Shown: positions 1-35,881 of the stretch, in pieces
Position numbering within the stretch: the stretch's first letter is position 1
Layout: each line of letters begins with the position of its first letter
Source of the DNA: Escherichia phage BF17
Reading direction: 5' to 3' (one strand)
Length of the DNA stretch: 64,000 bases
Sequence record: MW822008.1
Position numbers and translations under genes: made by a program
Notes under the pieces: generated by a model
Database searches by the model: none
Told to the model about the DNA's origin: nothing
The model's input: the letters and a program-made list of their open reading frames with translations, nothing else

Positions 1-276
1 TTGTATATCCAATACGCTACGGTTGATGCTGGAGAATATCTCTACAGTGAAATCTATCGTTCGGTATGGATAAAGTTTTTGGATGAATTACATGAATATT
101 ACCATGATTTGTGCATAGTTCGTGATAATAAAATATACAAATTCCGCGATATTGTTAGTCATAGCGGTAAGCTACGATTGGAATTAAGTACTGATAGTGA
201 TGTTGATTGGATTGGTGTAAATTTACTGGAGTTGGAGAATGAAAAACAACTTAAAGGAAATACAAGTATTTTATAA
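1..276 (+). CDS. hypothetical protein, 5' end outside window
   Basis: ORF open from window edge; no start visible upstream. Confidence 0.4.
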   Translation: MYIQYATVDAGEYLYSEIYRSVWIKFLDELHEYYHDLCIVRDNKIYKFRDIVSHSGKLRLELSTDSDVDWIGVNLLELENEKQLKGNTSIL

Positions 277-523
277 ATTCTTATACTTGTCATATGTAAA
301 AGATGAGTACTATGAAAGTGTGTATTATTTTTTATGGCAACATTACCGTACTATAGTAAGAGATTTATATATAGGAAAATCTATCATATCCAATGGTGAA
401 AAATGTATATGTACGGATGTAGTTAGTTTTAATGGTTCTTTAACACTGTGTTTCAGATGCGATAATAATAGTGGGTCATTTTCATTAAACGTATATCAGT
501 TAGAAGGAATAAATTTTGAATAA
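239..523 (+). CDS. small hypothetical protein (YIGK-x-V paralog family)
   Basis: 94-aa ORF; contains LYIGKSII motif shared with other small ORFs in first 12 kb. Confidence 0.45.
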   Translation: MKNNLKEIQVFYKFLYLSYVKDEYYESVYYFLWQHYRTIVRDLYIGKSIISNGEKCICTDVVSFNGSLTLCFRCDNNSGSFSLNVYQLEGINFE

Positions 524-716
524 ATGTCCATATTGTAACAGTACTCAATTAGCTCGTTTCCGTTTAGATTCAGACTGGGCGACTGGTGCTGGTGATTTCT
601 TCCCTATTAATGATGATGCGGAATACACCGAAGAACAGCACAAAGATTTTGATAAATCATGGCGACCTGACATTGAGTGCATTTATTGCCTTAATTGTGA
701 GCGTGTTCATGACTAA
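516..716 (+). CDS. small zinc-ribbon protein
   Basis: 66-aa ORF with CPYC ... CLNC pairs of cysteines. Confidence 0.45.
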   Translation: MNKCPYCNSTQLARFRLDSDWATGAGDFFPINDDAEYTEEQHKDFDKSWRPDIECIYCLNCERVHD

Positions 717-972
717 AGCTGAACTAATAGTTCATACATATAAAATGATATCAAGTACTGAGTTATCATATAGTGCAGATAATCCAGTACTGGATTATTT
801 TGTTGAATTATTGAAAGAGCATTATATTGGTAAATCACTGATTCTTAATAATATTAATTTCACGGTAAAGGATGTAGCACCTGGAAAAAACGTACTAATA
901 GTATGTGTTACTTCATCTGATAACCCAGTATACCCAATATCAATAATTTTTGAGATATTAGGAGATTTATGA
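709..972 (+). CDS. small hypothetical protein (YIGK-x-V paralog family)
   Basis: Internal ATG of ORF 586..972 overlapping upstream stop (ATGA); motif EHYIGKSLI. Confidence 0.45.
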   Translation: MTKAELIVHTYKMISSTELSYSADNPVLDYFVELLKEHYIGKSLILNNINFTVKDVAPGKNVLIVCVTSSDNPVYPISIIFEILGDL

Positions 973-1259
973 ATATCATTTTAATGCAGAAAACATATGC
1001 TATATTGGTGAAAGATTATTCCATTACTTTCGATTCACAAGAAAGTGCTCTACATAACCTATACAAAAACGTAACACAAGAATACAGAAATATGTTTTCT
1101 GACTTAGTAGTAGGAAGGTATTTCAGTACTAGAAAATACCCAAAACTTCAAATAGTTGATGTTTCTTTTTATTTCAATGGTCATATTACTATTCATAGTT
1201 TAGACCAAGATTCAACAACGTACTTAAACTTTTCATTTGATGAGGTAACATTTTTATGA
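969..1259 (+). CDS. hypothetical protein
   Basis: 96-aa ORF, start overlaps upstream stop. Confidence 0.5.
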   Translation: MNIILMQKTYAILVKDYSITFDSQESALHNLYKNVTQEYRNMFSDLVVGRYFSTRKYPKLQIVDVSFYFNGHITIHSLDQDSTTYLNFSFDEVTFL

Positions 1260-1432
1260 GAACAGTATTTTTTATCTGGAGTCTTTTTTCATTGGCAGTA
1301 CTGACAGTATGTGGGATTTGTTTCCTTTCATCAATTAATACTTGGTATATCAATTTACTATTTCCATTTGTCGGTGTTGGTTTAGGGTTTACTTTGCATA
1401 GTGTATGTAAGGATTACAATGAGAACAAATGA
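1256..1432 (+). CDS. small hydrophobic membrane protein
   Basis: 58-aa ORF not in track (below length cutoff); ATGA overlap with upstream stop; GAGGT upstream; predicted 2 TM helices. Confidence 0.35.
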   Translation: MRTVFFIWSLFSLAVLTVCGICFLSSINTWYINLLFPFVGVGLGFTLHSVCKDYNENK

Positions 1433-1697
1433 AGTACTTATTGCTGAAACAATGAAGATGATTTACAATATCACGTCAGCACAGAATATGCCCTATCCAA
1501 CTAAGTCTTTATTGAGGACTGTGTATCTGGGGATAGTACAGGAGTACTACAAATCCAAGCACCGAAGCATTATTAGTGTTTATCGTGATTATGAAAGGAT
1601 TCGTATTTTATTCTGGAACAAGAATCGAGTACGTTCTGAATGTGACCTAGTGGACTTTAAATTAGAGAATCTTTATTGCTATAAACAGGGACAATAG
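1419..1697 (+). CDS. hypothetical protein
   Basis: ORF 1401..1697 trimmed to internal ATG preceded by AAGGA. Confidence 0.4.
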   Translation: MRTNEVLIAETMKMIYNITSAQNMPYPTKSLLRTVYLGIVQEYYKSKHRSIISVYRDYERIRILFWNKNRVRSECDLVDFKLENLYCYKQGQ

Positions 1698-1755
1698 TTT
1701 AATTCATGATATAATAATGGGTAAGGAACAATAATTAACACAAGGAGTGTGTGAA

Positions 1756-2484
1756 ATGCTTGACCGTATCCGTTTCGCTACAGAGATGGCGAATGAATTA
1801 AACATGGCAAATTTCCAAATGTTAACATCAGTAATGGCTGAACATGCATGTGCTTATTCTGTAAGTGGTGTGCAGTGTGGTCAGGAGAATATGTTAGCAG
1901 ATGTTTATAGTGAAGTGCAAAGTAAGCAATATAGTGTGAAGACATATAAGGATAAGTTTGTTAGTCTTTATATGAACGAAGATATTGCCGAAGACCGCAA
2001 ATTCACTGATTTTATTATTGAACGCCGAGTATCAGGTGTATCTAATCCTAATGCATCAAGCGAGGAAGTTTTTGCAGAAGTACTGAAAGATATATACGAA
2101 AATGAATTAAAAAGTAAGAATCATTACAATGTACGTGAAACTAACACAGTGCTCTTGGGATATGATGAAGACGAAGAATACTATTATTTTCGTATGACTG
2201 AAGTTCCTTTTGAATACAAATCTCCATATACAACTACAGTGAAAGAATTTACTGAAAAAAGTAAAAACTTCATGAAGCATGAAGGAAATCGTTGTAGTAT
2301 AAATGGTTATGACGAAAATGGCATTCACATTTATGAGTGGGTTCACCCAAATTGTCAGACATACACTCGTTGCTTGAAAAAACGTTATAATTTAGAAGAG
2401 CATGAATCATTCTATTTTAAAGTTAAGAAGCAAGGTTATACTCGCCCCGCTGATTCTGAATTGTTGGGTATGATATATTTCTAA
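1756..2484 (+). CDS. hypothetical protein
   Basis: ORF 1747..2484; ATG at 1756 preceded by AAGGAG. Confidence 0.55.
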   Translation: MLDRIRFATEMANELNMANFQMLTSVMAEHACAYSVSGVQCGQENMLADVYSEVQSKQYSVKTYKDKFVSLYMNEDIAEDRKFTDFIIERRVSGVSNPNASSEEVFAEVLKDIYENELKSKNHYNVRETNTVLLGYDEDEEYYYFRMTEVPFEYKSPYTTTVKEFTEKSKNFMKHEGNRCSINGYDENGIHIYEWVHPNCQTYTRCLKKRYNLEEHESFYFKVKKQGYTRPADSELLGMIYF

Positions 2485-2494
2485 GGAAACGGCT

Positions 2495-2776
2495 ATGGAT
2501 TTTTATCTACACACATGGACATACGAACAATATATTACATTATATCTTGAAATTATTAACACAGAACCTAGGTGTGGTTGTTGGTTCGCAGATATCATAA
2601 AAGAGTATGCTGACGAGTTCGAGTTTGTGTATCTTGGGTCTGATATATTTGTAAAAAGTGTAGGTAAAACCGGACGAATCACTGATATAGATTACGACAC
2701 TGTTAGTGTTAATTTCTATGTTGATTTTCCTGATACTGGCGTTGATGGTGTATATTGTCTTTATGAAATAATTTAA
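2495..2776 (+). CDS. small hypothetical protein (paralog family-like)
   Basis: 93-aa ORF; motif FVYLGSDIFVKSVG; followed by terminator. Confidence 0.5.
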   Translation: MDFYLHTWTYEQYITLYLEIINTEPRCGCWFADIIKEYADEFEFVYLGSDIFVKSVGKTGRITDIDYDTVSVNFYVDFPDTGVDGVYCLYEII

Positions 2777-2783
2777 ATTCTTA

Positions 2784-2808
2784 GGCCAGCGTTTGCTGGT
2801 CTTTTTTC
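2784..2808 (+). terminator. rho-independent terminator
   Basis: GCCAGC-GTTT-GCTGGT hairpin followed by TCTTTTTT. Confidence 0.6.
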
Positions 2809-2820
2809 GCAGGTACAAAG

Positions 2821-3123
2821 ATGTTCAGTATAGATTTAATTAACAGTACTATCAAAATGTTGGCTGATTTGGTGAGACAATCCAATGGAACTTTATATCC
2901 ATCAATGTATAAAATGTTTGACCGATACATCAAGGATTGTAACATATCATTATATGGACTTACTGTTGATATAGACGATTACTATGGAATTAATACTTCA
3001 TATAAAACAGGAATTTTAATTGGTATTAATATAAAGATGGGGTATTTCCCTTATTACTGTATAGGATTACCAGATAATACTTTGGTAGAATATCCAGCCA
3101 GTACTATTAAATTAAGAGGATAA
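2821..3123 (+). CDS. hypothetical protein
   Basis: 100-aa ORF. Confidence 0.5.
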   Translation: MFSIDLINSTIKMLADLVRQSNGTLYPSMYKMFDRYIKDCNISLYGLTVDIDDYYGINTSYKTGILIGINIKMGYFPYYCIGLPDNTLVEYPASTIKLRG

Positions 3124-3130
3124 AACTAAA

Positions 3131-3709
3131 ATGAATGTATTAGAATTAAGTACTAAGCTGATTAGTATGCGTAATGAGTGGTACGATTGGTTTTATAATG
3201 GTACTGATATGAATTTTTCAAAATATCCATTTATGGAATCAGGATGTGATTCAAGATACCGCTGGTTGAGCAAAAGTGATTCTGGTTTACATATTAGAAT
3301 CGATGATAGTGGTCGAGGAATTATACACGATTTACTTCAAGTTGATCAATTCGTCCATGACAATTGGTGTGATAACGATCCATACCTTGGAAATATGATT
3401 TATATAAGTGAAGATGATTGCGTATTCGTTATCCAGCGACATGGTAATTCTATGTTTTATGTAGCAGACAGCAGTACACCAGAAGGTGCAGCAGCCGATG
3501 GACTTATGCCTAAGATTGATATATTGGAATTTGGATTACCTGAGCACTTCCAGATTAGTACTTTATACGATATTCCACCACTTGAGTTCTTTGAAGAATT
3601 TAAATTGTACTTCAATGATCTTCAAAAATTGAGTACTGATAGACGCATTGAAATAACTGTTAAGTACATGGACGGAACGAAATTAACCGATACGGGGATA
3701 GAATTTTGA
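3131..3709 (+). CDS. hypothetical protein
   Basis: 192-aa ORF. Confidence 0.55.
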   Translation: MNVLELSTKLISMRNEWYDWFYNGTDMNFSKYPFMESGCDSRYRWLSKSDSGLHIRIDDSGRGIIHDLLQVDQFVHDNWCDNDPYLGNMIYISEDDCVFVIQRHGNSMFYVADSSTPEGAAADGLMPKIDILEFGLPEHFQISTLYDIPPLEFFEEFKLYFNDLQKLSTDRRIEITVKYMDGTKLTDTGIEF

Positions 3710-4395
3710 TTAAAGATTTAGATAGAATTTTATATGTACTAAGGGGTGTAATTACATTACATCCACAAATCAATCGAATTGAAAGTACATTTCAGTTGGA
3801 GTCAAGAGAAACTCCATATTCACATATATCAAATGTAGTTGGTTCACTCAGTACTGAAGACTCGTCTTACGATATTTGTGTATGTGAAGTACAACCAAGT
3901 TCGGATCTTGGATTTGCTATTTTTGATAAAAATCAAAATCTCATTAGTATGTTTCAGTGCAATAATCCTTTTTGGAAAACATGCCTGTATCCAGAGTGGG
4001 CTATGCTTGATCCAACCAAGAGTACCATTAAAGTTTATGACTCTAAAAATGATGAAGTCGTTATTGATTTAGATGAGTCAATGTCAGAGGAAGAACACTT
4101 TCAGCTAATGATGATGCGTGCTATGCCTGAATACAATGCAATGATTAACACAGTGCAATACATTAAGGATACCATGCCAGCGTTGCGTACACATGAGTTT
4201 TGTCATCCGGTATTGTATGAACATCTAGATTTAGACTTCAGTACTATTAAATTTAAAGATAGTGTTAAAAAATATATTCAAGAGAATGTTAAATTTGATT
4301 TTATTAGTACTATGAACAATAATCCAAAAACTAATTTTAGGCATCAGTACAATGAATCTTTGTCTAATGGACGTGATACCAGTTGGTGGAAATAA
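3706..4395 (+). CDS. hypothetical protein
   Basis: 229-aa ORF, ATGA overlap with upstream gene. Confidence 0.55.
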   Translation: MIKDLDRILYVLRGVITLHPQINRIESTFQLESRETPYSHISNVVGSLSTEDSSYDICVCEVQPSSDLGFAIFDKNQNLISMFQCNNPFWKTCLYPEWAMLDPTKSTIKVYDSKNDEVVIDLDESMSEEEHFQLMMMRAMPEYNAMINTVQYIKDTMPALRTHEFCHPVLYEHLDLDFSTIKFKDSVKKYIQENVKFDFISTMNNNPKTNFRHQYNESLSNGRDTSWWK

Positions 4396-4396
4396 T

Positions 4397-4660
4397 ATGA
4401 ATATTCAAGATAGATTACAATTACTGTACACACTTGAACAGGCTGCTTATGATCTTGTTCGAAAAATCTCAGATGAACTACCTAAAGGAACTAAAGTTCG
4501 TGTACGTGAGATGAATTATTTTTCTGGAGTAATTGAAGAACAAGTACTAACAGTGAATAAAGTAACATACTATGAATCTGAGTTGTCTATTCAGTGTGAA
4601 TCTGATGATGGATTAATATCATATTATGGAACTGATGTAGATATAGAGGTAATAAAATGA
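4397..4660 (+). CDS. small hypothetical protein (paralog family)
   Basis: ORF 4352..4660 trimmed to ATG after upstream stop; motif GTKVRVREM. Confidence 0.5.
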   Translation: MNIQDRLQLLYTLEQAAYDLVRKISDELPKGTKVRVREMNYFSGVIEEQVLTVNKVTYYESELSIQCESDDGLISYYGTDVDIEVIK

Positions 4661-5799
4661 CCCTTTTGCAAATATATGAAGATTTAATGCACTTATGTAA
4701 TACAAACGATGCATTCTTTTATGTGGATCATAAAAGTCCTGCTGGTGGCACGTATCGTGTATTCAGTTATCGTCTAGCATCATACACTGATTTCATGCAA
4801 CCAAATGCGTTGGAAACCCGTGGCTCTATGTGGGAAATTGATGAAGAAGGTGACATGATACGTTGTGCAGCACGTACAATGAAAAAGTTCTTCAATGCTT
4901 ACGAGAATCCTGCTACAATGTTCCCTGCTAACACCACATGCGATGACATTGCGGTAGTGATGCCTAAGTTGGATGGCTCGATCATCAGTACTTATCGTGA
5001 TAATGATGGTGAGATTCGTTGTAAATCACATACTGCATTGTATTCTGACCATGCGATTAACAGCACTCGACTTATTAACGAGAACCAGAATTTGTATCAG
5101 TACATCGACGAAGCGGAACGTTTAGGTTACACAGTTAATATGGAGTATACAAGCCCAGAGTACCGAATTGTATTACCATATCAGGTAGAACAACTGTTTG
5201 TACTGAACGTTCGTCATCGTGTGAGTGGTGAGTTGCTTTGTGGTAAAGCACTACGTGATAAGTTTCCATGTCTTGCACAGTACAGTACTAATATGACTGG
5301 AAAAGATATTCATCACACTTTTCCGGTACGAAATACCTTCCGTGAAAGCGTGGAGGAAGTTCATAAAATGCTTGATATTGAGGGTTTTGTGTGCATCCTA
5401 AATAATGGGACAATGTGTAAAATAAAGACTGACTGGTACAGTTCATTACATCTTACAAAAGATAGTATTATTATTGATTCTCATTTATATGAAGCAGTAT
5501 TAAATGGTTCAAGTGATGATTTAAAACAATTGTTCAGTACTGATGAATATGCTATGCAAAAGATATTAAGAATGGAACAATTGGTATTTTCGTGCTATAA
5601 TGCATTACAAGATGAAGTAGAAAGCTTCGTCAAGGAACACAAGCACTTGGAGCGAAAGGAATTCGCAATGAAGGTTCAGGAGTGTTTAACTAATGAACTG
5701 AATCGTCAGGGCTTGGCCTTTGCAATGTATAACAATAAGAAAGTTGATTACAAAGAGACTCTTATAAAATACATGAAAATTGTACTAAAGGATTTTTAG
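4657..5799 (+). CDS. rnlA: RNA ligase 1 (T4 RnlA-like)
   Basis: 380 aa; N-terminus, FFY, YRVFSY, LE.RG and KxDGS nucleotidyl-lysine motif align with T4 Rnl1 (recalled from memory). Confidence 0.85.
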   Translation: MTLLQIYEDLMHLCNTNDAFFYVDHKSPAGGTYRVFSYRLASYTDFMQPNALETRGSMWEIDEEGDMIRCAARTMKKFFNAYENPATMFPANTTCDDIAVVMPKLDGSIISTYRDNDGEIRCKSHTALYSDHAINSTRLINENQNLYQYIDEAERLGYTVNMEYTSPEYRIVLPYQVEQLFVLNVRHRVSGELLCGKALRDKFPCLAQYSTNMTGKDIHHTFPVRNTFRESVEEVHKMLDIEGFVCILNNGTMCKIKTDWYSSLHLTKDSIIIDSHLYEAVLNGSSDDLKQLFSTDEYAMQKILRMEQLVFSCYNALQDEVESFVKEHKHLERKEFAMKVQECLTNELNRQGLAFAMYNNKKVDYKETLIKYMKIVLKDF

Positions 5800-5829
5800 T
5801 ACTATCTAGCCTAAGCACAAGGAGAAGTG

Positions 5830-6084
5830 ATGGCTAAACCTAAGTATAAAAATGACGGTTCCCTTTCTCCGACTGAGTTCAGGAAAATACAAGAAGAAAT
5901 CGATGAATTACAGCACAAACGCTCAATGAAAGGTGTGAAGATAAGTAAGAAACGAATCGAGAATACCTTCGGATGTAGTAGTACTGAATACAAGAAGAAA
6001 AGGAAACCAAAAGGTGTTAAGCCGAGAATACATGATGTAACTCGCTATACATCGAAACGTGAAAATAAATTTGATCCACTATAA
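5830..6084 (+). CDS. small basic protein
   Basis: ORF 5827..6084; ATG at 5830 after AAGGAG; K/R-rich C-terminus. Confidence 0.5.
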   Translation: MAKPKYKNDGSLSPTEFRKIQEEIDELQHKRSMKGVKISKKRIENTFGCSSTEYKKKRKPKGVKPRIHDVTRYTSKRENKFDPL

Positions 6085-6093
6085 GGAGTTCAT

Positions 6094-6330
6094 ATGAAAG
6101 TTGAAGTTCAGCATAGTATTGTTCAGGATATGTCAGTAGTTAAATTTCTTTCTCTGAAAGATTACTTCAGATGTATCAAGTTCCTAGAAGAATCTCAATT
6201 ACAGTGGACCCCATTAAAGTACAGTTCATCCAATGATACTGCTAGTATTCGTTGTGATGAATCTGTACTTGTGAAAATCTCCAAGCGATTTGGAGTTGGG
6301 AAATATAATGATAAACAATGCACAAAGTAA
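6094..6330 (+). CDS. hypothetical protein
   Basis: 78-aa ORF. Confidence 0.45.
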   Translation: MKVEVQHSIVQDMSVVKFLSLKDYFRCIKFLEESQLQWTPLKYSSSNDTASIRCDESVLVKISKRFGVGKYNDKQCTK

Positions 6331-6619
6331 TTTACTATATATAAAGTCAGTAGAAGCTGAAATTAAAAATTCAGTACAAACTATCGTCGATGAAATGATT
6401 GACAAATACAAGAGCAATCTTATTGGGAAGAAAGTCAGATGTTGGGATTACACATTCAAACACTGGTACGATTCCGAGATTGTGAAAGTTGATGTGAATA
6501 CTGATAGTAATGGTCTAATTAATGGTATTGCGTATATTGGTGTTTTAATACGCAAGGGAACACCACAGGAATGGCTAACTTATCATAATATAGAGCATGT
6601 TAAATTTTTAGAGGATTAA
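6308..6619 (+). CDS. small hypothetical protein (paralog family)
   Basis: ORF 6290..6619, internal ATG; motif NLIGKKVRCWDY. Confidence 0.45.
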   Translation: MINNAQSNLLYIKSVEAEIKNSVQTIVDEMIDKYKSNLIGKKVRCWDYTFKHWYDSEIVKVDVNTDSNGLINGIAYIGVLIRKGTPQEWLTYHNIEHVKFLED

Positions 6620-6622
6620 AGG

Positions 6623-7555
6623 ATGCCAACTATCACACTAACAGTTGGATTGCCTGGGTGTGGTAAAACTACATGGGCAGTGCAAGAGATTAAAAACGCC
6701 AAATCCAAGACTATCAACATCAACCGTGATGATATTCGTGAATCTATGGCTGGGTCACATGATGCTTACAAATTCAACGATGCTAATGAGCAGTACGTAA
6801 CTAATTTACAGTTCAGTGCAGCAAATTCAGCAGCAGAGAATGGTTGGAACATCATCATATCCGATACAAACCTTAAACAACATTTCCGTAATCTCTGGAA
6901 AGTATGGGCTAAAGATAATGGTTATGATTACAAAGAAAAGAACTTCTATGATGATTTTGTACCTAATGAAGACCGTGGTGCAGATGTTCATGAATTCTTT
7001 AAGATTAAAGAGTTCGTAAAACTTTGTAAGAAATATAACCTCCAGCGTGAGCGTTCAGTACAAGATGATATCATTGACACAATGGCAGATACGTACTATT
7101 ATAGTAAGGCATTACACATTGGTTACTATGGTAATTCACGCGAAGCTGCTATCATCGTTGATATCGATGGAACTCTTGCTCATAAATGGGGTCGTAATCC
7201 TTACGATGAAAGTACTGTTCTTCAGGATACACCTGATGAAGAAGTTATTTTGTCTATTATCGCTGAAGCAGTTTTTCATAAACGCAAGATTATCGTCATG
7301 AGTGGGCGTACTGAAGGGTGTCGTGCTGATACCGAACAGTGGCTTAAGAATTGGGGTGTTCCTTACGATGCATTGTTTATGCGAGATATCGATGATAAAC
7401 GTCCTGATGATGTTGTAAAATTCGACCTGTACATGAAAAATGTGGTTGATCATTACGATGTTAAAAAGGTATATGATGACCGCGATCAAGTTGTATTCAT
7501 GTGGCGTAAGCTACTTGGGTTGAAAGTTTTCCAAGTGGCTGAAGGAAATTTCTAA
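6623..7555 (+). CDS. pseT: polynucleotide 5'-kinase/3'-phosphatase (T4 PseT-like)
   Basis: 310 aa; P-loop GLPGCGKTT, NINRDD, HAD phosphatase motif VDIDGTLA, C-terminal WQVAEGNF closely match T4 Pnk. Confidence 0.9.
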   Translation: MPTITLTVGLPGCGKTTWAVQEIKNAKSKTININRDDIRESMAGSHDAYKFNDANEQYVTNLQFSAANSAAENGWNIIISDTNLKQHFRNLWKVWAKDNGYDYKEKNFYDDFVPNEDRGADVHEFFKIKEFVKLCKKYNLQRERSVQDDIIDTMADTYYYSKALHIGYYGNSREAAIIVDIDGTLAHKWGRNPYDESTVLQDTPDEEVILSIIAEAVFHKRKIIVMSGRTEGCRADTEQWLKNWGVPYDALFMRDIDDKRPDDVVKFDLYMKNVVDHYDVKKVYDDRDQVVFMWRKLLGLKVFQVAEGNF

Positions 7556-7562
7556 TACAAAA

Positions 7563-7590
7563 GGGATCATATATTGGTCCCTTTTTCTTT
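7563..7590 (+). terminator. rho-independent terminator
   Basis: GGGATC/GGTCCC hairpin with G-U pair, then TTTTTCTTTT. Confidence 0.6.
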
Positions 7591-7622
7591 TAAGGTACAT
7601 TATAGTGAATGTAACAACACAG

Positions 7623-7781
7623 ATGTTATTACAAAAAGACTACTTAGAAAATATAGAACGATACTATAGATTGTCTTTGTATGAAAATAAGCATAAAAAT
7701 TATAGTTTTGATAAACTACTAAATTCCAGTACTGATGATTATCTATTTTCATCAATGTTTTATGTGAGAGGTTTATTATAA
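7623..7781 (+). CDS. possible small ORF (52 aa)
   Basis: ATG ORF ending in TAATG overlap with next gene; not in track; weak. Confidence 0.25.
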   Translation: MLLQKDYLENIERYYRLSLYENKHKNYSFDKLLNSSTDDYLFSSMFYVRGLL

Positions 7782-8041
7782 TGGATAAATTTCACACAGA
7801 TATAACACAGATAGGTAATCTTATCAATAGTCTAATTACTGATTTAGAAGAAAAGTACTTAGGTCGAAATGTATACGTAGAAATGTATGAAACATATGGT
7901 GTTATTGATATGATTTATTACAGTGCATTGAAGTGTGAAATACGTTTAACAGTATGTTTGTTTGAAAAAAATACATTCAACAGAAGTACTGCAATTCGCC
8001 AAGTTGGAGTTGATGATATAGAATTATACGAGGAACAATGA
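7781..8041 (+). CDS. small hypothetical protein (paralog family)
   Basis: 86-aa ORF; motif EEKYLGRNVYVEMY. Confidence 0.5.
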   Translation: MDKFHTDITQIGNLINSLITDLEEKYLGRNVYVEMYETYGVIDMIYYSALKCEIRLTVCLFEKNTFNRSTAIRQVGVDDIELYEEQ

Positions 8042-8292
8042 TGTTTGAGCAGGACTTAGAGATATTCAAAAGTCATATTGATTACTTGACTATATTAGAA
8101 AATGATTTAACTACAAAGTACAAAGGCATTCGTGTTCTGTGCTGGTATGATGATTGGGATTATAAACGTGAACTCACGATTGATCGAATTTATTTCAGTG
8201 ACGGTGTACTAAATGTACATGGTGTAAATGATTTTGGTCATTCATATACATATTCTAATAATGCTAAATTTAAAAGGATCTACAATGAATGA
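8038..8292 (+). CDS. small hypothetical protein (paralog family)
   Basis: 84-aa ORF; motif TKYKGIRVLCWYDD. Confidence 0.5.
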   Translation: MMFEQDLEIFKSHIDYLTILENDLTTKYKGIRVLCWYDDWDYKRELTIDRIYFSDGVLNVHGVNDFGHSYTYSNNAKFKRIYNE

Positions 8293-8587
8293 ATATTATC
8301 ATAATTTATTCGATTACATAAAACTAATAGATGATCTTTCTTTTGAATTTCTCAGTACTGAAAAAGTTCTTGAACCTCTCTATTATGATTGTATTAGTTC
8401 ACTATGTTTAGATGAAAAAGAGATATTAGCAAACAACTTACCATCCACGGTCTGTACAATCAATGGTTCCAAGGCATTAGTGTGCGAGGTTAATTTTCAT
8501 AAATCACTTAATACAATTGTTTACAAGTTCGATAACACTTGGGTAAATCATGTAACCAGTAATATTAAATCTGTGAGATTTTTATGA
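8285..8587 (+). CDS. hypothetical protein
   Basis: ORF 8228..8587 trimmed to ATG overlapping upstream stop. Confidence 0.5.
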   Translation: MNEYYHNLFDYIKLIDDLSFEFLSTEKVLEPLYYDCISSLCLDEKEILANNLPSTVCTINGSKALVCEVNFHKSLNTIVYKFDNTWVNHVTSNIKSVRFL

Positions 8588-8880
8588 ATATAAAAAAATT
8601 ATTTGAACAAGTAAATTTATTGTACTGGTGTTCAGACGGTTCAGATAAGGAATATAGTGAAGTTTATTTAGAACTGTTTAGAACTGAAATTCATCAAATT
8701 CGAAGATACCTAATTGATAACAAAACTAAAGTACAAGTAAGATACCATAACGGTACTTTAAAGAATGGTGTAATTATTGGATTGATAGTTACACGAATGT
8801 CTAATAATATTAAAGTTGCAGTTAGATTAATGACTGATGATGGTGTCTACACAATAGAAGCTAGTGAGATTATATATTAA
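8584..8880 (+). CDS. hypothetical protein
   Basis: 98-aa ORF, ATGA overlap. Confidence 0.5.
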   Translation: MNIKKLFEQVNLLYWCSDGSDKEYSEVYLELFRTEIHQIRRYLIDNKTKVQVRYHNGTLKNGVIIGLIVTRMSNNIKVAVRLMTDDGVYTIEASEIIY

Positions 8881-9186
8881 ATGGATATACAAACATTCAA
8901 TAAACTTAAGTACTATGATGATGGTTTTGCATTAATAATTAACGAACTTGATGGAATACCATACGAATATCATAATCAAGTAATGAAGATAATAAAATGT
9001 ATATGTGAAGAATTAAAAAGTATATTTAAAAATGAATATGTTTATGATTTAGGTAATAATAGCAAAAAACTATACATAAAGAAATTCTGGGGAACGCATT
9101 GCGGTTTGATGGTCGATTTAGGTTTAAGTTTAGACGATAATTCTGAATCATGTTCATTATATATAGATGAAATGCGAATATCATGA
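8881..9186 (+). CDS. hypothetical protein
   Basis: 101-aa ORF directly abutting upstream stop. Confidence 0.5.
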   Translation: MDIQTFNKLKYYDDGFALIINELDGIPYEYHNQVMKIIKCICEELKSIFKNEYVYDLGNNSKKLYIKKFWGTHCGLMVDLGLSLDDNSESCSLYIDEMRIS

Positions 9187-9212
9187 GACGTATCAGAATT
9201 CGGTGATATAAT
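9184..9212 (+). promoter_or_regulatory. candidate early promoter (extended -10)
   Basis: TGAGAC ... 17 nt ... TGATATAAT; -10 lies inside GGTGAT/ATCACC inverted repeat. Confidence 0.35.
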
Positions 9213-9243
9213 TTGATTACATCACCAATAGGGAGAAGTTGAA

Positions 9244-9570
9244 GTGAATGGTTCGTTTTTAACAATATTAGAAAAGACAACCGAGATGCTTTCTAGCTCG
9301 TTAATGCAGATTTTCAGTACTAATAATTTATACAATACCCAGGTGTTAGATTCAATTAATAATAACTATGTGGTAAGTATATCTGATGAAATATGTCCAT
9401 TTAATGCGTATTCAATTTATAGTGTAGAAGAGTTTCATATATCCGAGATTCGATGTGGTTTTGGTGCTTGGTTAGTTCTAAATGAACGTTCAGGGTTGTC
9501 TTTATACATCGAAGAAGTTAGTAAATTTATATACAAAGGAGTAGAATATGTTAACCCCAATTATTCTTAG
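9244..9570 (+). CDS. hypothetical protein (GTG start)
   Basis: 108-aa ORF, GTG start preceded by GGGAGAAG. Confidence 0.45.
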   Translation: MNGSFLTILEKTTEMLSSSLMQIFSTNNLYNTQVLDSINNNYVVSISDEICPFNAYSIYSVEEFHISEIRCGFGAWLVLNERSGLSLYIEEVSKFIYKGVEYVNPNYS

Positions 9571-10201
9571 CAGTGCATATGTAATCGGTATTATTATTTC
9601 TGGTATGCTTGCATATAACTATAACCGAAGTGTTCTAGGTTATGTAGTACTTGGTACAGTACTAAGTCCAGTGATTGCCATTGGTCTTCTTGTTATGCTA
9701 GGTGAGAAAAATACAAGCTTCTTTATTACTAAAGAACTTGATAAAATCACTCCAGCACCAGAAACAGTTATTCCAGAAGTTAAAGAAGAAGTTAAAGAAG
9801 AAGTTAAAGAAGAAGTTAAAGAAGTTGAAGTTCAAATGCAAGTTAAAGTGTATAATACACTTGAAGAAACTGATCCTAAAGTTGTAGTGAATGTAGTTCC
9901 AGTCGTTGAAGATGTGAAACCAAAAGCTCCTAAAGTACAGAAAAATACTAAAACTGCAAAGAAAGCTCGTTACACTAAAGGTAAGAACAAAGGTAAATCT
10001 AAGGATGAACCACAACTAGGTGTTCATGACCATACTGCACAAATTGCAACGGCAGCGACCGCAGCAGCAATCGTAACATCACCAATCTACAACAATGATG
10101 ATTACAGTGATTATAGCCGTCACAGCAGTTCTTCCTCTGATTCTTGTTCCTATGATAGCTCTAGTTCTGATTCAAGTTCATCGTCTGGAAGTTGTGATTA
10201 A
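9548..10201 (+). CDS. membrane protein with EVKE repeats and Ser-rich C-terminus
   Basis: 217 aa; two N-terminal hydrophobic helices; (EEVK)x4 from 12-bp tandem repeat; C-terminal SSSSDSxS tract. Confidence 0.55.
   Translation: MLTPIILSSAYVIGIIISGMLAYNYNRSVLGYVVLGTVLSPVIAIGLLVMLGEKNTSFFITKELDKITPAPETVIPEVKEEVKEEVKEEVKEVEVQMQVKVYNTLEETDPKVVVNVVPVVEDVKPKAPKVQKNTKTAKKARYTKGKNKGKSKDEPQLGVHDHTAQIATAATAAAIVTSPIYNNDDYSDYSRHSSSSSDSCSYDSSSSDSSSSSGSCD
9779..9824 (+). repeat. 12-bp tandem repeat (GTTAAAGAAGAA) about 4 copies, in-frame
   Basis: Direct reading of sequence; encodes VKEE repeats. Confidence 0.8.
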
Positions 10202-10530
10202 TGTCAATGAAACCACTAATTCAACATAATATTTTTTATAGGTCATTATTCAAAATTCAAGATGATTTTTATCAGACGTTGAGTAATGATCTTATAGGTA
10301 AAACTGTACGATATTCGGAACAATACATCAAACGTATGACAAGTGAGTATATTGACCCTGAATACGAATACGACATTGAACACATTAATCCCAATACTAG
10401 AATGAAAATCATTGAGATATTTAAGAATGGGAGAACTATAGGTGCTGAAATTGAGTACTTGAATTGTGATTGTTACATAGATACCGAGTTAAGTTTGGAT
10501 TATCTTGTTTTAGTGGATGATGAGGAATAA
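10201..10530 (+). CDS. small hypothetical protein (paralog family)
   Basis: 109-aa ORF; motif NDLIGKTVRYSEQY; TAATG overlap. Confidence 0.5.
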   Translation: MSMKPLIQHNIFYRSLFKIQDDFYQTLSNDLIGKTVRYSEQYIKRMTSEYIDPEYEYDIEHINPNTRMKIIEIFKNGRTIGAEIEYLNCDCYIDTELSLDYLVLVDDEE

Positions 10531-10532
10531 TT

Positions 10533-10748
10533 ATGATAACATTTTTTGCAATATATGGTTTTGTAGCATTTGTTACATTTATAACCAACTTTCTAGTACT
10601 TAATTGGGGTTGTTTTAAAGATGAAATCATGATTATCATGAATCTCCAAACAGCAGCACTGATGGCTATTATTTGGCCTGTAACATTAGTATATATTTTT
10701 ATTTCACTTACCCAAGATATTATTAACAAATATAAGAGAAAGAAATAA
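10533..10748 (+). CDS. small membrane protein
   Basis: 71 aa, two hydrophobic helices, KRKK C-terminus. Confidence 0.5.
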   Translation: MITFFAIYGFVAFVTFITNFLVLNWGCFKDEIMIIMNLQTAALMAIIWPVTLVYIFISLTQDIINKYKRKK

Positions 10749-10999
10749 TGTTCAACACTGACTTATCACATTTGCGATATCTTATGTCTTTGGCTGATGA
10801 TTTTATAAATGATCTGAAGCCAAAATATATTGGTCAAGAAGTACGATTAATAAACTCCAGAGGGTATGGAAAGTATATTATTACTGATATGTATATTAGT
10901 GGTGGTGAATGGCGTTTTAAAATTAATACTTATCTTAAAGATGGTTCTTTTGCTGGAACACAAGTTACTAAACACACTAATATTATATGGTTGGAGTAA
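10748..10999 (+). CDS. small hypothetical protein (paralog family)
   Basis: 83-aa ORF; motif KPKYIGQEVRLI. Confidence 0.5.
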   Translation: MFNTDLSHLRYLMSLADDFINDLKPKYIGQEVRLINSRGYGKYIITDMYISGGEWRFKINTYLKDGSFAGTQVTKHTNIIWLE

Positions 11000-11001
11000 T
11001 A

Positions 11002-11745
11002 ATGAAACACTTCTTAGAAGTAACTGTACCTGATGATAAAGATTTATACATTGTAGGTGATTTGCATGGTAATGGTAAACTATGGGATGCTACAGTGAAA
11101 GAATTTGGTATTACACACAATGATTATGTTTTCAGTGTAGGTGATATTATCGACCGTGGAGAACAAAATTCAAAGCTCCTTTTTGAATTTTTGTTCGGAG
11201 AAAATCGTTACATGATTGCGGGTAATCATGAGATGATGTGCGTTGATTCGGAAACACTTCGAGATTGGTATCATTGTTGGATAAGTAATGGTGGTGATAA
11301 ATTCCTTGATGAAGTTGGAGGAACAGGCATTCAATTCTTTCGTCAGTACTTAAAGGATCTCCCTATGATTATCCAAATCAATCACCGAGGATTGAAGATT
11401 GGGTTAGTTCATGCTGGAGTTCCGTTGGAATATACAACATGGGAACGATTTGTTAATGGGACAAAATCACTTAGTGCTGATATAATTGATAAGTGCTTGT
11501 GGGATAGAAAAACATTCGATTATTGTAGAACTAATAATACATATTATGCACCTAAGTTAGATGGAGTGCATTGTGTCTTTAGTGGACATACAGCAGTTAC
11601 AGACCCACTCATTTACGGTAATCGCATTTGGATTGATAGTCAGTTCTTGACGGGTGACTTAACTCTCGCTACTCCACAAAGTGGTGGGATGAGATACTTA
11701 CGTAAAGAAAAAGATGAGTACTCATTCAATCGTTTCAAAAGGTAA
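11002..11745 (+). CDS. Ser/Thr protein phosphatase (PPP-family metallophosphatase)
   Basis: GDLHGN, GDIIDRG, GNHE motifs of calcineurin-like phosphatases. Confidence 0.75.
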   Translation: MKHFLEVTVPDDKDLYIVGDLHGNGKLWDATVKEFGITHNDYVFSVGDIIDRGEQNSKLLFEFLFGENRYMIAGNHEMMCVDSETLRDWYHCWISNGGDKFLDEVGGTGIQFFRQYLKDLPMIIQINHRGLKIGLVHAGVPLEYTTWERFVNGTKSLSADIIDKCLWDRKTFDYCRTNNTYYAPKLDGVHCVFSGHTAVTDPLIYGNRIWIDSQFLTGDLTLATPQSGGMRYLRKEKDEYSFNRFKR

Positions 11746-11750
11746 TAATT

Positions 11751-12020
11751 ATGCATGATGTAGTTAAAAAATATTTGAATGATAGATATATTATGAAAAA
11801 ATCTATTAATTCTATCCTAAAAGACCATGCAAATCAAATACGTGAGATTCTATCAAATAAACTTATTGGTTGTTCAGTTGAGTTCAACTACAAAAAGAAT
11901 GTCGTGAAGGTTGGAGTTATTAAACGTGTAGTTGCTGTTTATGACCAAGATGTATATGTTGAAATAGAATATGATGGTAAATTATCACAATTAAGTACTG
12001 AAGATTTAACATTTTTATAA
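11751..12020 (+). CDS. small hypothetical protein (paralog family)
   Basis: 89-aa ORF; motif NKLIGCSVEFNY. Confidence 0.5.
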   Translation: MHDVVKKYLNDRYIMKKSINSILKDHANQIREILSNKLIGCSVEFNYKKNVVKVGVIKRVVAVYDQDVYVEIEYDGKLSQLSTEDLTFL

Positions 12021-12030
12021 GGAAATAGAA

Positions 12031-12258
12031 ATGAAAGTAATTCAAGTTATGGTAGAAAAATACCAAACTGAAGATGGTCGTATTTTTGATTCAGCTAAAC
12101 AAGCTGAACACCATGAACGTATTATTTCTGGTGCACGTAAAGTATGTCCTACATGTAATGGAACACAACAAGTACCGTCAGAAGATTACCGCAGCTTTTA
12201 TGCTTGTCCACACTGTGATGGGAAAGGCTACGTAGAAAAACAAGAGGTATGGAAATGA
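12031..12258 (+). CDS. small zinc-ribbon protein
   Basis: 75 aa; CPTC ... CPHC. Confidence 0.5.
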   Translation: MKVIQVMVEKYQTEDGRIFDSAKQAEHHERIISGARKVCPTCNGTQQVPSEDYRSFYACPHCDGKGYVEKQEVWK

Positions 12259-12668
12259 AATTGTATTGCTTAACTAATATGTACTGCCAAGGTGTCCAAG
12301 CTGGTATTCAAGCATTCCATGCTGGTGTTAAACTAATTAAAGAATATGAAGGTACTGCTTTCAGTACTATTATTGATGAATGGTACTATGAACACGAAAC
12401 TATTGTAGTACTAAATGCTGGTGGACATGATAAGTTAAATTCTTATTATAACAACCTTAGCAAACAGGGAAAAGTTCCGTTTGCCAAATTCAATGAAGCT
12501 GGATTGAATGATGCTATTACCTGTGTAGCAGTACTGTGTACGTCTGAAATGATTGAAGACATGGCTGTTATGCGTATGAATCTTCCTGCTGGTGATCAAC
12601 TAATGCAAGTAAAATATGGTGCATTGTTTGACACATTAAAAGCAATCAGCACAATGAGGACAATTTGA
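12249..12668 (+). CDS. hypothetical protein
   Basis: 139-aa ORF overlapping neighbours by a few nt. Confidence 0.5.
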   Translation: MEMKLYCLTNMYCQGVQAGIQAFHAGVKLIKEYEGTAFSTIIDEWYYEHETIVVLNAGGHDKLNSYYNNLSKQGKVPFAKFNEAGLNDAITCVAVLCTSEMIEDMAVMRMNLPAGDQLMQVKYGALFDTLKAISTMRTI

Positions 12669-20885: not shown

Positions 20886-20914
20886 TTTGACTTAAGTGTT
20901 TAAGTACTATATTA
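20886..20914 (+). promoter_or_regulatory. sigma70-type promoter
   Basis: TTGACT - 17 nt - TATTAT, 37 nt upstream of ATG 20951. Confidence 0.5.
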
Positions 20915-20950
20915 TTTATATCTTCCTAAACAAAATTGAGGACTTGTTAT

Positions 20951-30570: not shown

Positions 30571-31185
30571 ATGACTACATCTGAAAAGTACTGGTGGATT
30601 TTGGCTCATCCTAAATTCATAAACAAAGATATGGTTCCAGCTAGGATTGATATAGAACCTCATGATGTGTGTCCAATGACAAATCGAATTGAAGATTTCA
30701 AAGCATTGAATACAAAGACTCAATTTTGGGTAGAATTTCTTTCACCAATGTATATTGAGCAAGACGACGAATGGGTACAAGCACATGATTATCAATTGGA
30801 TTGTGGTGGTGATACGTATGAAGAGGCGATTGATAAATTATACAAAAATGTGCTAAACACATATGGTGATTACACCCAACAAGAAGCAGATAACACATTT
30901 AATAAGATCCATGCATTCAAATCTACTCCATCAATTTTTAATCCTACTAAAACTGTTTGGGAGGAACGACACAGTTGGAGTTCATGTGTAATCGATGAAG
31001 AAACCAAAGAAAAAATCATCGATGATATAAAAAATTTAAAAAATACGATAGAAGCCTTGCGTGAATTCATAATGTCTTGTACAATAGAACAACAGAAAGA
31101 GGCAAAGATACATTTGGAGAGTGAAGAATGTAAACTTTGGGTTCTAGAGAAATCTATTGAAAAGGGTATAGACTTAGACTTATGA
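30571..31185 (+). CDS. hypothetical protein
   Basis: ORF 30559..31185 trimmed to ATG after GGAG. Confidence 0.55.
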   Translation: MTTSEKYWWILAHPKFINKDMVPARIDIEPHDVCPMTNRIEDFKALNTKTQFWVEFLSPMYIEQDDEWVQAHDYQLDCGGDTYEEAIDKLYKNVLNTYGDYTQQEADNTFNKIHAFKSTPSIFNPTKTVWEERHSWSSCVIDEETKEKIIDDIKNLKNTIEALREFIMSCTIEQQKEAKIHLESEECKLWVLEKSIEKGIDLDL

Positions 31186-31550
31186 ATAGTAAATTGGAGA
31201 AACTAATCGAAGAATTACGCCAGATGCCACCTATTGAACAAGTAGGAAATTACAAACGGTATCGTGTTATTGCTCGTGCACTTGATAAAAAAGGTAGAGT
31301 ACTGGCAACTCGCACAAATTCTTATACACAGACTCACCCAGTACAGAAGGGTTTCGCCATTCGTGCTGGGCGACCGCAAGGTGAGTTTCTTCATGCTGAA
31401 ATTTCATGTTTACTGGCTGCTCGTGCTGATGTTCATACTTTACTGATTGCACGGATAAGTAAAGATGGAATTCCTGTTCCGGCTAAACCATGTGAAATTT
31501 GCTCATTAGCAATAAAAGAATATGGGGTGAAAGAGATTATCCACACATGA
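31182..31550 (+). CDS. CDA-fold zinc deaminase-like protein
   Basis: 122 aa; HAEISCL and PCEICS (H-A-E ... P-C-x-x-C) zinc-binding signature of the cytidine deaminase-like superfamily. Confidence 0.55.
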   Translation: MNSKLEKLIEELRQMPPIEQVGNYKRYRVIARALDKKGRVLATRTNSYTQTHPVQKGFAIRAGRPQGEFLHAEISCLLAARADVHTLLIARISKDGIPVPAKPCEICSLAIKEYGVKEIIHT

Positions 31551-31768
31551 AAATTGAAAGATATGCTAAGCATACTGTTGGGTGTGTAAATGATATATTC
31601 TATTATTATATTTTTGCACCTGAACTACGTTTTCAAATCACAACATACAATGATGGCAGATTTAAAGATACAAACTTCCTCATAACCGACTTAGCAAAGT
31701 ATGCGAATACAGAACATTTTAATCATTTAGTATTTGTGTACTGTATACCAAACCCAAATAAAAAGTAG
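31547..31768 (+). CDS. hypothetical protein
   Basis: ORF 31499..31768 trimmed to ATG overlapping upstream stop. Confidence 0.45.
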   Translation: MKIERYAKHTVGCVNDIFYYYIFAPELRFQITTYNDGRFKDTNFLITDLAKYANTEHFNHLVFVYCIPNPNKK

Positions 31769-35839: not shown

Positions 35840-35847
35840 TATAAATA
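35840..35847 (+). promoter_or_regulatory. T4-type late promoter core TATAAATA
   Basis: Exact TATAAATA about 35 nt upstream of the first fiber-like gene. Confidence 0.5.
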
Positions 35848-35881
35848 CATTAACTAATATCTAATTTATAAGGGATATATA

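Follow-up and report, generated by a model that had tools for sequence, protein, structure and literature searches.

What are the small hypothetical genes that crowd the first 12 kb of this stretch of Escherichia phage BF17 DNA (sequence record MW822008.1; 64,000 nucleotides [nt], here called the window), and do they form one family? A sequence-only reading of the window had proposed that about twelve open reading frames (ORFs) encode paralogues with a helical N terminus and a β-rich C-terminal part, joined by a short motif, interspersed among the genes for RnlA, Pnk, and a phosphatase, and diversified by selection in the service of host takeover or antidefense. The account that we consider probable, on balance, is that these genes make up a single lineage-restricted superfamily of helix-plus-barrel proteins, grown by old tandem duplication and serving as protein-binding adaptors or inhibitors. 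As a recognized superfamily it is new, and it belongs to two known themes, SH3/Tudor-like barrels and the lineage-specific multigene expansions of large phages.

Over its first 12.1 kb, the window shares 99.3% identity with Escherichia phage PBECO4, an Asteriusvirus jumbo coliphage, and 97 to 99% with ~20 further Asteriusvirus jumbo phages (~350 kb); every gene between positions 1 and 12,100 lies on the plus strand. All twelve ORFs (83 to 109 amino acids [aa]; named here by their first nucleotide) were found where the sequence-only reading had placed them, and each is an annotated coding sequence (CDS), labelled "hypothetical protein," in 99%-identical phages. Conservation, ratios of nonsynonymous to synonymous substitution (dN/dS) below 0.5, and confident folding ruled out chance ORFs. 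The proposed motif survived in a loose form: the relaxed pattern [YLFV][ILVK]G[KRQICST]x[VILF] occurs in 11 of the 28 small plus-strand ORFs in positions 1 to 12,100, compared with 1 of 54 elsewhere in the window and 1.3 ± 1.1 (maximum, 6; n = 2,000) in composition-preserving shuffles, an enrichment that is indicative only, as the pattern was composed post hoc from the sequences themselves. The strict form, [DN]-L-x-x-K-Y-[ILK]-G-x-x-V, did not generalize, being confined to genes 7781, 8038, and 10748, and even the glycine is absent from gene 8584 and from two sets of additional members described below (gene 1419 and the copies upstream of the window).

Comparison by single sequences revealed little of the relationship. 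BLASTP and phmmer among the candidates gave at best E ~ 1e-3 (for 239/709/969 and for 7781/10748), the paralogues share a median of 12% identity in the merged alignment, and one MAFFT alignment of all twelve, a check proposed with the original claim, was poor; its profile-profile counterpart gave links that exceed the control distribution, as set out below. We searched iteratively with hidden Markov models (HMMs; inclusion E ≤ 1e-3) in a database of 1,150 to 1,306 stop-to-stop ORFs from both strands of the window and of phages ELP-22, CMSTMSU, JNE01, RaK2, and, later, fEgEco12, together with 68 small CDSs from four less closely related genera, the minus-strand ORFs being the decoys. The searches converged on two subfamilies, A and B, with E values of 1e-15 to 1e-33 and not a single minus-strand decoy recruited.

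Subfamily A consists of the genes at 1, 239, 709, and 1419, together with 969, which joins by full-length alignment; these and all other members in the window are on the plus strand. Only the 3′ part of the first lies in the window (1 to 276; famA HMM, E = 5e-25; hhalign against gene 239, P = 4e-38); the whole gene, annotated in ELP-22, encodes 103 aa and starts 36 nt before the window (ELP-22 segment 2965 to 3276). Gene 239 (239 to 523; 94 aa) encodes the A protein that we modelled, and gene 709 (709 to 972; 87 aa) matches famA at E = 8e-20 and the famC profile at P = 0.001 in hhalign. The divergent gene 969 (969 to 1259; 96 aa) aligns with A in register over its full length, gives hhalign P values of 0.0034 against famA and 0.002 against gene 239 (76 columns), and is retrieved by the A4 profile search. 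Gene 1419 (1419 to 1697), whose product is basic (isoelectric point [pI], 9.5), is a divergent and borderline member that entered the A search in some iterations only and aligned with famA at P = 2e-4 over 83 columns.

Subfamily B comprises genes 4397, 6308, 7781, 8038, 10201, 10748, and 11751, plus an outlying copy at 31547. Gene 4397 (4397 to 4660; 87 aa; famB, E = 4e-25) lies directly upstream of rnlA, which it overlaps in an ATGA, and gene 6308 (6308 to 6619; 103 aa; famB, E = 2.5e-28) lies directly upstream of pnk; both match ORF463 of RaK2. Genes 7781 (7781 to 8041; 86 aa; famC, E = 7e-22) and 8038 (8038 to 8292; 83 to 84 aa; famB, E = 1e-23) align with gene 10748 at P = 6.6e-7 and P = 5e-5, respectively. 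Gene 10748 itself (10748 to 10999; 83 aa), directly upstream of the phosphatase gene, encodes the modelled B protein, and gene 11751 (11751 to 12020; 89 aa; famB, E = 3e-18) lies directly downstream of that enzyme. The very acidic product of gene 10201 (10201 to 10530; 109 aa; pI 4.5; famB, E = 5e-21) carries an insertion in the barrel. Two further subgroups are represented by gene 8584 (8584 to 8880; 98 aa), which forms a profile with RaK2 ORF478 and ORF471 and bridges A and B, and by gene 2495 (2495 to 2776; 93 aa), very acidic and the weakest of the twelve, with its motif, YLGSDI, at residue 46. In hhalign the 2495-type matches the 8584-type at P = 5-7e-4 over 50 to 69 columns and famB at P = 0.0025, with no significant match to famA.

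We modelled one member of each main subfamily with AlphaFold2, using paralogue and orthologue alignments as input. The model of the A protein 239 (pLDDT 88.6; pTM 0.77) has helices at residues 5 to 22 and 28 to 44 and strands at 48 to 51, 54 to 64, 67 to 74, and 80 to 84; that of the B protein 10748 (pLDDT 84.2; pTM 0.68) has a helix at 2 to 27 and strands at 31 to 34, 41 to 51, 54 to 63, 68 to 75, and 79 to 81. The two confident models thus agree with the helical N terminus and β-rich C terminus claimed earlier, in identical element order, and the small β-barrel that structure prediction had been expected to reveal appeared in both: each model shows one or two N-terminal helices packed on a five-stranded SH3/Tudor/KOW-like barrel, predicted to be ~50 residues of strongly bent antiparallel sheet with SH3 topology. 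In each, the motif glycine (G46 in 239, G29 in 10748) stands 2 residues before strand 1, and the aromatic-[ILV]-G-[KR]-x-V motif is shown by the models as the predicted helix cap and start of strand 1, at the junction between the two. Both models match the Tudor chains 7egs_B and 5dma_A, a likeness at the level of fold only (4 to 24% identity). No Sm1/Sm2 motifs and no LSM or Hfq profile or structure match pointed to an Sm/Hfq-like protein.

Do A and B then share an ancestor, or have two to four unrelated families each arrived independently at a helix plus an SH3-like barrel, the G-K-x-V turn being a convergence at the start of strand 1? KOW-type barrels generally have a glycine-rich start to strand 1, the direct comparison of A with B, although in register, gave only P = 0.0017 (probability, 15%), no A-B pair fell below P = 0.001 at the level of ortholog groups, and the remote-homology clustering of PHROGs holds each member apart. 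Independent origin nevertheless appears improbable in the light of the intermediate subgroup. The 8584-type profile, extended with its two RaK2 homologues, matched A over its full length (P = 1.5e-6; probability, 90%; 85 columns), B at P = 3.4e-4, and the 2495-type at P ~ 6e-4, and gene 10748 matched A at P = 3.3e-4, whereas the lowest P value in 140 control comparisons with 28 unrelated small-ORF profiles was 0.0053 (for gene 2821, possibly a member itself), the next being 0.0068 and the others at least 0.025. The JNE01 gene that occupies the position of 8584 is classed as A-type. A single merged HMM retrieved 84 of 85 members and, in addition, a new RaK2 copy (ORF469, just upstream of pseT; E = 5.5e-4), and all of the subgroups lie in one cluster, on one strand, in one phage lineage and were detected nowhere else. 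Because the 8584-type bridges A and B beyond the control P values, because JNE01 has an A-type gene in its place, and because one merged HMM recovers nearly all members, we concluded from these profile comparisons that the genes probably constitute one superfamily with four linked subgroups (A, B, 8584-type, and 2495-type).

The paralogous family is therefore genuine, but "about twelve" was an undercount: the window also holds 1 to 276, 1419 to 1697, and the copy at 31547, and upstream of it there are three A copies close by and one or two more at 24 to 36 kb. The outlying B-type copy (31547 to 31768; famC, E = 8e-10) has the barrel without the N-terminal helix and no PHROG match. Its frame, open from about 31496, shares ~50 nt with the 3′ end of the gene before it (31182 to 31550), a putative nucleotide deaminase by sequence resemblance. 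The copy could be a decaying or an unannotated gene. Two possible members gave weaker signals: gene 2821 (2821 to 3123; 100 aa; hhalign against the 8584-type, P = 0.0053 over 61 columns; merged HMM, E = 0.16) and gene 8881 (8881 to 9186; 101 aa; P = 0.0037 against 7781 and P = 0.009 against 4397; merged HMM, E = 0.4). Together with the ORFs at 8285 to 8587 and 9304 to 9570, they are ~100 aa long, lie among the members, and have an alike C-terminal strand ending (...SVRFL, ...IDEMRIS). Against the family profiles the four gave P values of 0.004 to 0.2, which are not significant; they may be further, more diverged copies.

Per genome there are ~19 to 21 copies, mostly within one cluster of ~15 kb. 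Counting with the subfamily HMMs at E ≤ 1e-5 between the genes for Dam and DNA ligase, we found 16 to 17 copies in the window phage, all on the plus strand and three of them A copies located shortly before the window, 15 in fEgEco12, 13 in JNE01, and 9 to 10 in RaK2; the positions are conserved. All four phages have a B copy immediately before rnlA; the Asteriusviruses have further B copies upstream of pnk and of the phosphatase gene, and RaK2 has the weaker copy ORF469 upstream of pseT. When we scanned the whole of a 98%-identical 352-kb genome, one clear copy outside the cluster lay 24 kb upstream (E = 3.5e-8); a second, probable copy lay 36 kb upstream (E = 1e-3), and the other ~240 kb yielded none. 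Homology that is statistically supported within A and within B, together with clustering on one strand, makes this a tandemly expanded paralogous family, the links between subgroups being weaker (P = 1.5e-6 to 3e-3). The layout of the cluster and the conserved positions within it point to an origin by tandem duplication: the family would have grown by old duplications within the ~15 kb between the Dam methylase and phosphatase genes, after which positions would have been kept between genera while sequences drifted (to ~12% identity between paralogues and 23 to 57% between same-genus orthologues) and single alleles were swapped by recombination.

Outside this lineage we found nothing. When the B profile was run exhaustively with hmmsearch on 1.84 billion representative proteins, it returned 9 matches, all of them orthologues of window members, and word-indexed homologue searches returned close Asteriusvirus-type orthologues only. 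Syntenic small ORFs in Yen9-04, GAP32, CBB, and Munch were rejected as members, since every comparison with a family profile gave P > 0.06, and no members were detected in Eneladusvirus, Mimasvirus, or Munch. These searches showed the superfamily to be apparently restricted to the RaK2-group jumbo phages (Asteriusvirus and Alcyoneusvirus). Databases of known families do not recognize it either. No Pfam or NCBIfam match passed the cutoff, the Pfam scan covering ten of the twelve ORFs (239, 709, 969, 2495, 4397, 6308, 7781, 8038, 10201, and 10748); the best KOW match (PF00467; gathering threshold, 22.3 bits) was 12.9 bits (E = 0.11) for gene 2495, with none in the nine others scanned, CarD_TRCF (PF02559) gave no match at E ≤ 1 among the members scanned, and PDB sequence searches with both profiles gave nothing significant. 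In PHROGs v4, 11 of the 12 ORFs each match, over their full length, a high-numbered PHROG of unknown function of their own (E = 1e-56 to 1e-75), gene 239 matches two weakly (E = 1.6e-4 and 7.7e-4), and no PHROG is common to the members. The literature on PBECO4, 121Q, RaK2, CBB, phAPEC6, fEgEco12, and Sharanji and the Iyer 2021 review do not describe the family. Two functional labels in fEgEco12 were not supported by these searches: "transcriptional regulator" for the orthologue of 6308 (9448 to 9759), as 6308 has no Pfam or NCBIfam match and falls in a PHROG of unknown function, and "SAM-dependent 2'-O-MTase domain-containing protein" for the orthologue of 8584 (11724 to 12020), as 8584 has no NCBIfam match and likewise falls in such a PHROG.

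How has selection acted on the copies? Few genes of the region diverge as fast as the members, which show 23 to 57% aa identity to JNE01, a phage of the same genus, compared with 75 to 86% for the enzymes and 93 to 96% for some other small ORFs. The sequence-only reading had taken such divergence for diversifying selection, which the substitution ratios do not bear out. Gene-wide Nei-Gojobori dN/dS against fEgEco12 (85% DNA identity) was 0.03 to 0.38 for the members, 0.04 to 0.10 for the enzymes, and 0.02 to 0.42 for other small hypothetical ORFs; pairwise against JNE01, where dS is saturated, the members gave 0.18 to 0.72. Gene-wide and pairwise, no member exceeded 1 against either phage. Furthermore, divergence from fEgEco12 is mosaic: the products of 239 and 6308 are 100% identical in aa sequence (dS, ~0.04 to 0.05), that of 709 is 32% identical, and that of 10201 is 46% identical. 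These contrasts between neighbors a few hundred bases apart indicate probable gene-sized allele replacement by recombination among Asteriusviruses. In JNE01 the 6308 product is only 33% identical. The family is thus fast evolving, under net purifying or relaxed selection, with recombinational allele replacement in addition.

These data also bear on whether the copies might be dispensable "filler" genes that simply drift, their divergence reflecting weak purifying selection and recombinational turnover and not adaptation driven by host defenses. Ratios of 0.1 to 0.4, which resemble those of other small hypothetical ORFs and stay below 1 throughout, would fit, as would the wholesale replacement of alleles such as 709 and 10201 and a copy number that ranges from 9 to 17 between phages. 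Yet positional orthologues have been retained since the split between Asteriusvirus and Alcyoneusvirus, the fold appears to be kept, at high predicted confidence, despite ~12% identity, and every copy compared has an open reading frame and a dN/dS below 0.5. Mere drift is possible but, in our judgment, unlikely.

On the reading that we favor, each copy would be a small protein-binding adaptor or inhibitor whose barrel and helices present a variable, mostly acidic surface to a different host or phage target, and the copies would be expressed before the late genes, alongside neighboring counterdefense and repair enzymes (RnlA and Pnk against anticodon nucleases, Dam, and the phosphatase). Most members are indeed acidic, with a pI of 4 to 6 and a net charge as low as −12, and such a charge speaks against nucleic-acid binding as a general role. 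They also appear not to be structural: the phAPEC6 orthologues, gp361c to gp392c, are absent from the 62-protein mass spectrometry proteome of the virion (PMC7247149, Table 1). The phAPEC6 authors suggested that RnlA and Pnk may counter the Prr abortive-infection system. From the adjoining RnlA, Pnk, and Dam genes, the absence from the virion, and the acidic charge, that is, through guilt by association, we infer that the copies may be small cytoplasmic protein-binding modules for host takeover or counterdefense. A bolder and rather doubtful extension is that the cluster is a "binder repertoire" of ~20 diversified copies, each neutralizing or hijacking a different host factor, for which candidate targets are components of defense systems or the docking sites of NusG, Mfd, and UvrD and the β lobe of RNA polymerase.

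Two more specific functions were weighed against the favored one. The copies could be KOW/Sm-like nucleic-acid binders or partner subunits of enzymes, each B copy acting as the specificity factor or chaperone of the rnlA, pnk, or phosphatase gene that follows it. The barrel does resemble KOW domains, B copies do lie directly upstream of all three genes in Asteriusvirus and of rnlA and pseT in RaK2, and at 4657 to 4660 the start and stop codons overlap; we nevertheless regard such a role as very unlikely. Equally so is the idea that the proteins are Tudor-like binders of the RNA polymerase β lobe, in the manner of CarD, the Mfd RID, and the C-terminal domains of UvrD/PcrA, that redirect or protect host transcription. 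The structural resemblance is at the level of fold only (4 to 12% identity), is equaled by matches to chromo and PWWP domains, R67 dihydrofolate reductase, ribosomal eL27, NdhS, and EF-P, and is accompanied by no Pfam CarD_TRCF or KOW match; nor would it explain the need for ~20 different such binders.

Signals for the time of expression were few. A σ70-like promoter scan showed no enrichment, and the TGAAACG-type promoter pattern of CBB/GAP32 was not found. The only hint of the early timing assumed in the sequence-only reading is that the cluster lacks the T4-type late motif TATAAATA throughout, which is consistent with prelate expression without proving it. The motif is also depleted across the 64-kb window (2 sites, compared with 12.8 ± 3.5 in shuffles), which suggests that TATAAATA may be a functional signal, avoided elsewhere in the window. 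The two sites lie at 20913 to 20920 on the minus strand and at 35840 to 35847 on the plus strand; the latter precedes by 11 nt a 2.7-kb ORF beginning at 35858.

Several observations weigh against our preferred account. The link between A and B consists of P values of 1e-3 to 1e-6 plus similarity of fold, and SH3-like barrels are common, so that convergence is possible; genes 2495 and 1419 are weakly attached, and the fold models cover only two members. A Foldseek search against the BFVD viral models returned no match below E = 0.01, nor any relative with a named function. The dN/dS values carry no sign of an arms race, synteny is conserved across the whole region, so that positions beside enzymes say little about function, and the products of 1419 and 11751 are basic, so that the members need not all act in one way.

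The interspersion with enzyme genes noted at the outset is borne out by Pfam, which identified all three: RnlA (RNA ligase 1; 4657 to 5799, plus strand; PF09511 and PF20819), Pnk/PseT (polynucleotide kinase-phosphatase; 6623 to 7555, plus strand; PF25109, E = 9e-44, and AAA_33), and a calcineurin-like Ser/Thr metallophosphatase (11002 to 11745, plus strand; PF00149, E = 5e-11). The genes for Dam methylase and a cytidylyltransferase lie just 5′ of the window, and that for DNA ligase lies just 3′ of the cluster. A PTH2-like peptidyl-tRNA hydrolase (12255 to 12668; PF01981, E = 2e-5) adjoins the RnlA/Pnk RNA repair genes and fits a theme of tRNA damage repair for the island. Two plausible terminators lie at 2783 to 2802 and 7559 to 7585. 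The ORFs at 516 to 716 and 12031 to 12258 have paired CxxC motifs of zinc-ribbon-like appearance, align with each other at P = 1e-4 (hhalign; the CxxC stretch, 11 columns), and may constitute another pair of small paralogues in this cluster. The ORF at 9548 to 10201 (217 aa) encodes an N-terminal hydrophobic stretch, a putative membrane anchor, followed by tandem EVKE repeats and a Ser/Asp-rich acidic tail, and the window and ELP-22 show a net length difference of 24 nt somewhere within 8880 to 10201.

In the RaK2-group jumbo phages more than 80% of genes lack an assigned function. Bringing the copies together turns ~20 "hypothetical" ORFs per genome into a single helix plus SH3/Tudor-like scaffold, merges many orphan PHROGs, makes the fold usable in annotation, and provides a tractable gene set beside known counterdefense enzymes. 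Should the copies prove to bind specific targets, they would define a new class of host takeover or antidefense proteins; if not, they would offer a clean example of ancient tandem duplication and extreme sequence divergence with the fold retained.

How, finally, do these proteins compare with known systems? They differ from the N-terminal domain of CarD/CdnL, the Mfd RID, and the C-terminal domain of UvrD/PcrA in having no sequence similarity to them (4 to 12% identity; no PF02559 match) and in being stand-alone Tudor-like proteins with one or two N-terminal helices. From the KOW domains (NusG/Spt5, eL27, and EF-P domain I) and the chromo/Tudor "Royal family" they are set apart by a Pfam KOW match below threshold (best E = 0.11, gene 2495) and by charge: they are mostly acidic, whereas the typical ligands of KOW domains are nucleic acid or ribosomal partners. 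R67, the type II (DfrB) plasmid dihydrofolate reductase, shares 11% identity and is a homotetramer with a central active-site pore, and the comparison holds for the fold only. The multigene families of African swine fever virus (ASFV) and poxviruses are lineage-specific expansions with comparable clustered, divergent copies; were the cluster truly a binder repertoire, it would be their phage equivalent as well as a new source for antidefense proteins. Among phages, Bacillus phage G, with ~35 zinc-ribbon copies, offers an analogous expansion (Iyer 2021 review, PMC7824862), and ~10% of the proteins of RaK2 are paralogues according to its authors (PMC3622015). Like other small-domain expansions in jumbo phages and large viruses, the family consists of many divergent, clustered copies in one viral lineage, and what distinguishes it from them is its fold, helices joined to an SH3-like barrel.

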